IMG/VR virus record: IMGVR_UViG_2526164667_000039
From: a virus
Lineage: Duplodnaviria; Heunggongvirae; Uroviricota; Caudoviricetes
Length of the DNA stretch: 9,671 nucleotides
Reading direction: 5' to 3' (one strand)
This document shows positions 8,861 through 9,424 of this stretch, in pieces. The position numbers and the translations under genes are program-made. The notes beneath the pieces are model-generated. The model did not search any database and was not told the DNA's origin. It saw only the letters and a list, made by a program, of their open reading frames with translations. Within the stretch, counting starts at the first letter, position 1. Each line of letters opens with the position of its first letter.

Positions 8861-9424
8861 TCAGGCGTTGGTGTGGATCACTATTGCACCGTTCGTGACA
8901 CGTAACTCCGATAACTCGTTAAAGCGCTCCATAAACATCCCGTAGGCATGGCTCGGAGCCAGTGGAATAACTTTGAACATTTCTGTTGCCGGGATACCTT
9001 CCAGTACTGGCCAGAAAGAGCCATCATCAAGCCCGAGATCGCGGCGTTCGGTTGCCAGCATGATGAGATCGGCATATTTCACAGGCGTGCTCATAACCGG
9101 GGGTAACCCGTATTTCTCACGGATTACGGCGTCTATTTTTTCTTCCATCCGTTTATAGTCAGGAAGAAGGCGTTTCAGTGGAGCGGGAATATCCTGGCAA
9201 TACGCTTCTGTTGCATCATGCATTAACGCTTCAAAAGCAAATTCCTGCGGCACCAGCTGGCTGCAAAGAACCGCATGTTGGGCGACGCTGTAGAAGTGCG
9301 AAAGATGACCGGCAAAGCGACAGATATTTGAAAGGGAAACCGCGATATCGTTAATATCGATGTCGTCTTTATTTATCCTGTCATAATAAAAATGCTTCCC
9401 AGAAAAAGTTTTGATAAATGACAT
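8861..9424 (-). CDS. yfdR: HD-domain phosphohydrolase (YfdR-like putative 5'-deoxynucleotidase), 187 aa as found; the last 12 residues (VTNGAIVIHTNA) are encoded by the IS end
   Basis: ATG 9424-9422 is preceded by GGAG with a 6-nt spacer (the ORF track uses an upstream GTG at 9451). HD-type motifs are present: ...AGHLSHFYSVAQHA... and ...EALMHDATEAYCQDIP.... After removing the IS, the reconstructed native C-terminus is ...SELRTCA-stop, giving 178 aa, the length I recall for E. coli CPS-53 YfdR. The gene symbol is from memory and not verified. Confidence 0.65.
   Translation of the reverse strand: MSFIKTFSGKHFYYDRINKDDIDINDIAVSLSNICRFAGHLSHFYSVAQHAVLCSQLVPQEFAFEALMHDATEAYCQDIPAPLKRLLPDYKRMEEKIDAVIREKYGLPPVMSTPVKYADLIMLATERRDLGLDDGSFWPVLEGIPATEMFKVIPLAPSHAYGMFMERFNELSELRVTNGAIVIHTNA
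8901..8905. repeat. Target-site duplication of the IS21-family element, copy 2 (CGTAA)
   Basis: Identical to 6943-6947. Confidence 0.8.

Follow-up and report, generated by a model that had tools for sequence, protein, structure and literature searches.

YfdR (b2361) is encoded by the cryptic prophage CPS-53/KpLE1 of Escherichia coli K-12 and carries the RefSeq label '5'-deoxynucleotidase'. Noguchi and Katayama (2016) found that it binds domain I of DnaA, through Phe46 (PMC4776307). Inhibition of replication initiation requires multicopy yfdQ together with yfdR and with yfdS or yfdT, YfdR alone being insufficient, and deletion of yfdQRST from K-12 gives no phenotype (PMC4776307). The same article relays, at second hand, a low-affinity dephosphorylation of 5'-(deoxy)nucleotides by K-12 YfdR. 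CMP phosphatase activity has also been reported for the protein, and its deletion did not raise the yield of CMP (PMC10870394). Publications thus already cover the gene and its family, the enzymatic label and the binding to DnaA, and IS100 is a well-known element.

Here, we analyse a yfdR allele that is interrupted by IS100 near its 3' end, within a 9,671-nt stretch of DNA (hereafter, the window). We find that the gene is a prophage yfdR very probably encoding a small, all-helical, metal-dependent HD-domain phosphohydrolase, that IS100 has swapped its last three codons, and that the function of the protein is probably retained and the insertion likely neutral. A first-pass annotation of this DNA had mentioned a link between YfdR and inhibition of replication initiation; the link itself is real, in the form of the published DnaA binding, but the inhibition belongs to the multicopy yfdQ–yfdR–(yfdS or yfdT) combination and not to YfdR by itself.

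Table 1. Features of the yfdR locus and of the surrounding prophage, in window coordinates.
Feature	Position	Strand	Remarks
Fimbrial usher (FimD/PapC-type), N-terminal fragment	1-339		Abuts the integrase end of the prophage
Lambda-type integrase, split into 126-aa and 290-aa ORFs	387-1672		T7 run at ~1307
Insertion element, 1331 bp	3083-4413		Annotated as IS3-family transposase in DEC9B; 5-bp duplication CGCGG
Downstream ORF, 203 aa	6328-6939	-	First 45 residues YfdS-like, rest Ea22-like
Target-site duplication TTACG, right copy	6943-6947	-	Pairwise BLAST against the uninterrupted locus
IS100-like insertion sequence (IS21 family), 1953 bp	6948-8900	-	Same orientation as yfdR; 99.5% identity to annotated K99B IS100
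istB helper ATPase, split into 58-aa and 212-aa ORFs	7014-7797	-	Extra A at 7637
istA transposase, 340 aa, intact	7794-8816	-	HTH and rve domains
IS left-end difference, T to TT	near 8843-8846
IS left-end difference, AAA to AA	8862
IS left-end difference, CCC to CC	8872
yfdR::IS100 fusion ORF, 187 aa	8861-9424	-	175 YfdR residues plus 12 IS-encoded residues
IS-encoded tail VTNGAIVIHTNA and TGA stop	8861-8899	-	Inside the IS left inverted repeat
Native yfdR DNA	8901-9424	-	Encodes the HD-domain core with H50, H69-D70, E73, D78 and D119
Target-site duplication TTACG, left copy	8901-8905	-	Pairwise BLAST against the uninterrupted locus
GGAG Shine-Dalgarno of yfdR	9431-9434	-	6 nt before ATG; read directly from the sequence
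Hairpin AAAUGCCCC-UGCG-GGGGCAUUU, perfect 9-bp GC-rich stem	9518-9539	-	yfdQ–yfdR spacer; RNA fold of 9425-9560
yfdQ 3' end (DUF2303 family)	9552-9671	-	Annotated yfdQ in matching genomes; cut by the window/contig end

A member of the YfdR branch of HD-domain proteins

The fusion frame runs on the minus strand from an ATG at 9424 to a TGA at 8861-8863 (187 codons). An in-frame GTG at 9451 provides an alternative start that would add nine residues; ATG 9424 is the yfdR start annotated in every related genome. Residues 1–175 share 96% identity with E. coli K-12 YfdR and are identical to those of the DEC5D protein WP_000008205.1. A megablast search of 5,426 complete E. coli genomes with window bases 8700-9671 returned thousands of loci that carry the annotation 'yfdR: 5'-deoxynucleotidase' beside 'yfdQ'. 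The yfdR DNA is 100% identical to that of several complete genomes, DEC5D included, up to window base 8901 (query base 771), where the 100% matches end. PHROG 318 ('deoxyribonucleoside 5' monophosphate phosphatase') matches the protein at E=4e-109 and, as judged by sequence comparison, this match and the identity to K-12 YfdR lie far above chance. A database search yielded 4,767 homologues at E<=1e-5, mostly of 174–180 aa, and relatives occur in 324 phage records, among which are Stx2c-converting phages as well as those of Pseudomonas, Burkholderia, Caulobacter, Bacillus and other hosts. Among the phage matches listed, every alignment ends at or before about residue 176, and the IS-derived tail is therefore not part of the YfdR family. 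The complete native 178-aa frame is absent from this allele, its last three codons having been replaced. We assign the allele to the YfdR family as a disrupted member, not to a different family.

Family alignments of 23 and 51 members define a signature of invariant H50, H69, D78, D119, E126, R127 and D129, joined by H40, D70 and E73, which are nearly invariant; every one of these residues is present in the window protein. The first-pass annotation had named the gene a YfdR-like HD hydrolase with intact H...HD...D motifs, and alignment to K-12 YfdR bears out both the orthology and the motifs, with H50, H69-D70, E73, D78 and D119 all in place. The predicted metal-binding and catalytic residues are all untouched by the IS100 insertion.

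Alignment to YfbR-type 5'-deoxynucleotidases, which the same annotation had proposed as a check, gave a divided answer. The central motif does align: in a profile comparison with K-12 YfbR, YfdR 61–96 falls on YfbR 60–99 (a 36-column local match of 31% probability), placing H69-D70, E73 and D78 of YfdR on H68-D69, E72 and D77 of YfbR. The mutation carried by YfbR in its substrate complexes, 2par and 2pau, affects E72. The flanking motifs also match by eye, YSVAQH (H50) resembling NVSEH (YfbR H33) and VKYAD (D119) resembling VKQAD (YfbR D137). Zimmerman et al. are said to have assigned the YfbR metal ligands, in 2008, to H33, H68, D69 and D137. The relationship is distant, however, and the cut-offs of both Pfam and NCBIfam are missed: YfdR scores 24.2 against a gathering threshold of 25.9 for PF12917 (YfbR-like), 16.9 against 22.5 for PF13023 (HD_3), and 19.7 bits against a cut-off of 122 for NF003009, the NCBIfam YfbR equivalog (dCMP phosphohydrolase). 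Pfam covers the YfdR family poorly, as most of the homologues likewise lack a precomputed Pfam match. Given a score far below the equivalog cut-off and a match confined to the 36-column motif, we reject YfbR orthology.

The closest solved protein by sequence is instead Atu1052 (PDB 2gz4; E=7e-16 over YfdR residues 19–178). An AlphaFold (AF2) model built from the 51-sequence alignment is all-helical with a mean pLDDT of 86.9, only one of the five models being confident, and the best Foldseek match to its fold in the PDB is again 2gz4 (TM 0.71–0.79); DatZ, OxsA, HDDC2 and YfbR are far weaker HD phosphohydrolase matches (TM 0.42 for YfbR). We place the window protein in the YfdR/Atu1052 branch of the HD superfamily, not as a YfbR orthologue. 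The Dmp protein of phage T5 was rejected as a homologue, with an hhalign probability of 0.2% and membership of another PHROG (415).

The IS100 insertion and the rewritten C terminus

The boundaries of the element were taken from a pairwise BLAST of the window against the uninterrupted DEC5D locus, which gave three collinear blocks: window 9671-8901 corresponds to DEC5D locus 9001-9771, window 8900-6948 to the annotated IS100, and window 6947-4414 to DEC5D locus 9767-12300. The first and third blocks both take in DEC5D locus 9767-9771 (TTACG), and the target duplication is therefore a perfect 5 bp. The element ends in TGTCACGAACGGTGCAATAGTGATCCAC and, on the opposite side, TGTCAACGACGGATGAAAAGTGATCCAC; its terminal repeats, which are imperfect and begin TGTCA, read TGTCACGAACGG... 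and TGTCAACGACGG.... As the element is full-length, has both inverted repeats and is flanked by a clean duplication, it stems from a genuine transposition and is no chimera of the assembly. The A that splits istB is extra relative to the K99B copy of IS100, and the window copy would be non-autonomous unless this A is a homopolymer sequencing error. The exact yfdR–IS100 junction was not found in species-representative genomes.

IS100 copies in strains K99B and ET210 likewise have 5-bp target duplications. Those at 7336-9289 of the K99B locus and 3891-5841 of the ET210 locus are independent insertions within a few hundred bases of this module; yfdT is hit in one case and yfdS in the other, and a separate 5-bp duplication flanks each element. 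Together with DEC9D, the strain that carries the window allele, this makes three independent IS100 insertions in yfdR–yfdS–yfdT.

The native gene ends GAG TTA CGC ACA TGC GCA TGA (E L R T C A stop) and the window gene ends GAG TTA CGT GTC ACG AAC GGT GCA ATA GTG ATC CAC ACC AAC GCC TGA, so that a terminal ELR-TCA becomes ELR-VTNGAIVIHTNA, with three residues lost and 12 gained. The third base of codon 175 is already IS-derived (CGC to CGT), and the arginine is kept. Comparison with the DEC5D protein thus agrees with the IS-rewritten C terminus described in the first-pass annotation, although the precise tail depends on the lengths of homopolymer runs in a draft assembly.

These lengths matter, as the stop codon of the fusion is set by them. 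Within the first 60 bp of its left end, the IS differs from canonical IS100 by three single-base changes in homopolymer length (Table 1). This left end has no match at an identity of at least 99% in the 5,426 complete E. coli genomes, and the variant was not found in 185,579 species-representative genomes. Substituting a K99B-type left end yields the 23-residue tail VTNGAIVIHTQRLKSDPGGNLLS, and an MLI106K4-type left end leaves the frame open into IstA; only the first ten tail residues (VTNGAIVIHT) are unchanged when canonical left ends are substituted. It is therefore quite possible, although somewhat less likely than the printed reading, that the tail is partly a sequencing or assembly artefact and that the true left end is canonical, giving either a tail of about 23 residues or an in-frame YfdR–IstA fusion. 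The DEC9D sequence comes from a draft assembly attributed to Hazen et al. 2012, and the window holds two further homopolymer indels, in istB and in the integrase (T7 versus T8), which point in the same direction. Against this, private mutations in a non-functional IS copy could also produce such differences, and istB is frameshifted too. The robust part of the reading is that the IS interrupts yfdR past codon 175 and adds a tail beginning with the ten residues VTNGAIVIHT; the tail past these ten may be a sequencing artefact.

Past L171, the YfdR family varies in both sequence and length. Natural members end at positions equivalent to 174 (...ELTES; P0008, from a cluster of 685 sequences), 175 (...EAR), 176, 178, 179 and 180, and because the family ends vary naturally in length, loss of T/K-C-A falls within natural variation. 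In the AF2 model, the last helix spans residues 157–178 and residues 179–187 score below 50; the appended tail is most likely a disordered, floppy extension of this helix. The tailed protein probably still folds and keeps the activity of native YfdR, which the literature describes for the K-12 protein only, although a hydrophobic 12-residue tail could destabilise it or alter its oligomerisation or DnaA binding. The pBAD/HisB vector puts the His tag at the N terminus. The published His-YfdR was cloned in pBAD/HisB, and it is for this reason uninformative on tolerance at the C terminus.

Operon context and age of the insertion

The gene lies between yfdQ and Ea22-like genes and shares its strand with the cI-like repressor, xis and int, and the gene order in DEC5D and DEC9B is repressor-yfdP-yfdQ-yfdR...xis-int. 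We place yfdR in the lambdoid early-left (repressor to int) operon. The first-pass annotation had set it at the head of the visible operon, ahead of the Ea22 genes; the operon and the order relative to the Ea22-like genes hold, but the head position does not, since the 3' end of yfdQ is still present in the window and sister genomes have yfdP and the repressor further upstream. The window's first complete gene is yfdR, and the called 39-residue yfdQ fragment gives a weak match to PF10065. The hairpin in the yfdQ–yfdR spacer is not followed by a T-run, hence the lack of a call in the terminator scan, and the whole spacer folds marginally better than shuffled sequences (z = -2.0); the hairpin could be a candidate processing, pause or antitermination-sensitive site. 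Terminator and promoter scans of 6700-9671 returned nothing above shuffled expectation.

The first 45 residues of the downstream ORF share 89% identity with K-12 YfdS. Natively, the ORF and yfdR overlap by 10 nt, where the ATG of the one meets the stop of the other (ATGCGCATGA), and the GGAG of the ORF lies inside yfdR; IS100 now separates the ORF from this native GGAG. An in-frame GTG at 6975, in the right IS end, is preceded by a GGAG 7 nt upstream, would add 12 residues and could be a substitute start. The ORF is open for 203 codons in the window; in DEC5D and DEC9B, the PGAP call is limited to the initial 135 bp and labelled a partial pseudogene. A YfdS function for this ORF is unsupported, as only its first 45 residues are shared with YfdS, and a 210-aa DUF551-annotated protein showed no BLASTP similarity to YfdS. 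The prophage lineage is without an intact yfdS, having only a 45-residue YfdS remnant joined to an Ea22-like protein, and the annotations of the matching DEC5D and DEC9B loci show no yfdT from yfdR to int. Whether the IS is counted in or not, the prophage therefore lacks the K-12 'replication-inhibitory unit' in the form that was tested. The effects of the insertion on the operon are probably more consequential than the tail: an IS of about 2 kb now stands ahead of the Ea22-like genes, and translational coupling would be severed.

Only one contig on record encodes the exact 187-aa product: AIGN01000064.1 of GCA_000249955.2, from E. coli DEC9D (O26:H11 ST29, Denmark, 1967). The sister strain DEC9B, for which a complete genome is available, carries this prophage, likewise in the fimbrial usher gene, and the same insertion element at 3083-4413, which we take from its ends to be IS2, together with a yfdR without IS100. 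Outside IS100, only 5 substitutions and 1 indel separate DEC9B from the window over 7.7 kb. Within the 771 bp that lie upstream of IS100, the sole difference between DEC9D and DEC9B falls in codon 173 (window 8907), which encodes Glu here and in most yfdR alleles and is GTG (Val) in DEC9B. Because DEC9B has the same prophage without IS100, the IS100 insertion is recent and strain-specific; because it shares the IS2, the latter insertion is the older of the two. The IS2 sits between the ribosome-binding site and the ATG of a DUF551-annotated gene (2444-3076) and truncates an upstream ORF (4373-4945).

The prophage appears to be integrated inside, or to truncate, the fimbrial usher gene. A FimC-like chaperone lies beyond the usher fragment in the contig. 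The integrase T-run has seven residues of T in the window and eight in DEC9B, the integrase of which is intact at 428 aa, and the split is either a real inactivation or a draft-assembly error. The IS100 insertion fits prophage decay, as the same prophage also has an IS2 and a frameshifted integrase, and it was most likely a neutral event.

Function of the allele and comparison with known systems

Upon prophage induction, the early-left transcript would be made and YfdR with it, and the protein could then reduce dNMP/NMP pools or act through DnaA to dampen host initiation. These roles are probably retained in the tailed allele, the insertion being probably a neutral step in prophage decay. In four unrelated phages, genes of the yfdR family lie beside genes for DNA polymerase, ligase, helicase, a Cas4-like exonuclease, RdgC and a methyltransferase, and such replication and recombination neighbours fit a role in nucleotide or DNA metabolism. 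An obligatory pairing of YfdQ with YfdR was also considered; it is not seen, by annotation, in these four phages.

Many yfdR alleles in the databases are clearly broken, which argues that selection to keep the gene in cryptic prophages is weak. This raises the question of whether the tailed allele is effectively a pseudogene, its hydrophobic tail destabilising the protein or marking it for proteolysis as the prophage decays. The accumulation of IS2, IS100 and a frameshifted integrase in one prophage would suit such a reading, as would the commonness of truncated, frameshifted and IS-fused alleles and the lack of phenotype of the K-12 yfdQRST deletion. We nevertheless consider it unlikely: the 175 retained residues are all identical to those of intact alleles, natural family members end at residue 174 or 175, and the tail is predicted to be disordered and not packed on the core.

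Two bolder readings have little probability. Read-through from yfdR into istA is possible, because IS100 is inserted in the sense orientation, the istA ATG lies 44 nt past the yfdR fusion stop and no recognisable terminator stands between them. That induced early-left transcription reads into istA in this way, coupling IS100 to SOS or induction, or alternatively that the tail changes DnaA binding, strikes us as quite improbable. Finally, the suggestion in the first-pass annotation that such hydrolases may modulate nucleotide-based immune signalling found no support. That the YfdR-family proteins of phages are mainly counter-defence enzymes that destroy such signals and not agents of dNMP metabolism or DnaA control is most improbable, for this reading draws only on the generic fact of a phage-borne nucleotide phosphohydrolase fold that is widespread in phages, whereas the neighbours in unrelated phages are replication and recombination genes, the activity in the literature is on nucleoside monophosphates and no PADLOC model matches YfdR (a weak point, the library covering defence proteins and not phage counter-defence proteins). 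Membership of YfdR in a defence system was rejected on the same PADLOC result.

The window allele is a private and probably neutral lesion in one 1967 O26:H11 isolate and, as such, matters little. As a natural C-terminal variant, it can be used to ask whether the YfdR C terminus matters for DnaA binding, and it offers an example of how translational coupling within the early operon of a phage can be severed by an IS. In the same frame, a left end of canonical IS100 type could even give an in-frame YfdR–IstA fusion protein, and the locus reminds us that a short 'fusion tail' can come or go with the homopolymer indels of a draft assembly.

Comparison with canonical IS100, a member of the IS21 family, shows that the window copy shares the istA–istB organisation, the TGTCA-type repeats and the 5-bp duplication; in contrast to the canonical element, it is 1953 and not 1954 bp long, has a frameshifted istB and differs at the left end by the three homopolymer lengths. 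Among enzymes, T5 Dmp, a deoxynucleoside-5'-monophosphatase, carries the same functional label as the YfdR family in phage databases and is also an early phage gene product, but it is not homologous to YfdR and is a functional analogue at most. E. coli YfbR (dCMP phosphohydrolase/5'-deoxynucleotidase; 2par, 2pau) belongs, like YfdR, to the HD phosphohydrolase superfamily and aligns at the central motif, yet is only distantly similar, by profile cut-offs as well as by fold (TM 0.42). Closer is Atu1052 of Agrobacterium tumefaciens (2gz4), deposited as a protein of unknown function, which shares the VAQH, HDA.E....D and K.AD motifs with YfdR; it differs in being encoded by a chromosomal gene, in its length of 207 aa with small insertions and in its identity of about 26%, and it has no reported function.

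The nearest described system remains K-12 YfdR itself, which has the same upstream yfdQ, the same HD residues and the same 10-nt overlap with a downstream ORF starting MRMNVFEMEGF. The K-12 protein ends in KCA and the closest intact alleles in TCA, whereas the window protein has 12 IS-encoded residues instead. K-12 has YfdS as the downstream partner, in place of which the window has a 45-residue part of YfdS fused to an Ea22-like protein, and K-12 yfdR resides at the CPS-53 site, whereas the prophage of the window resides in a fimbrial usher gene.
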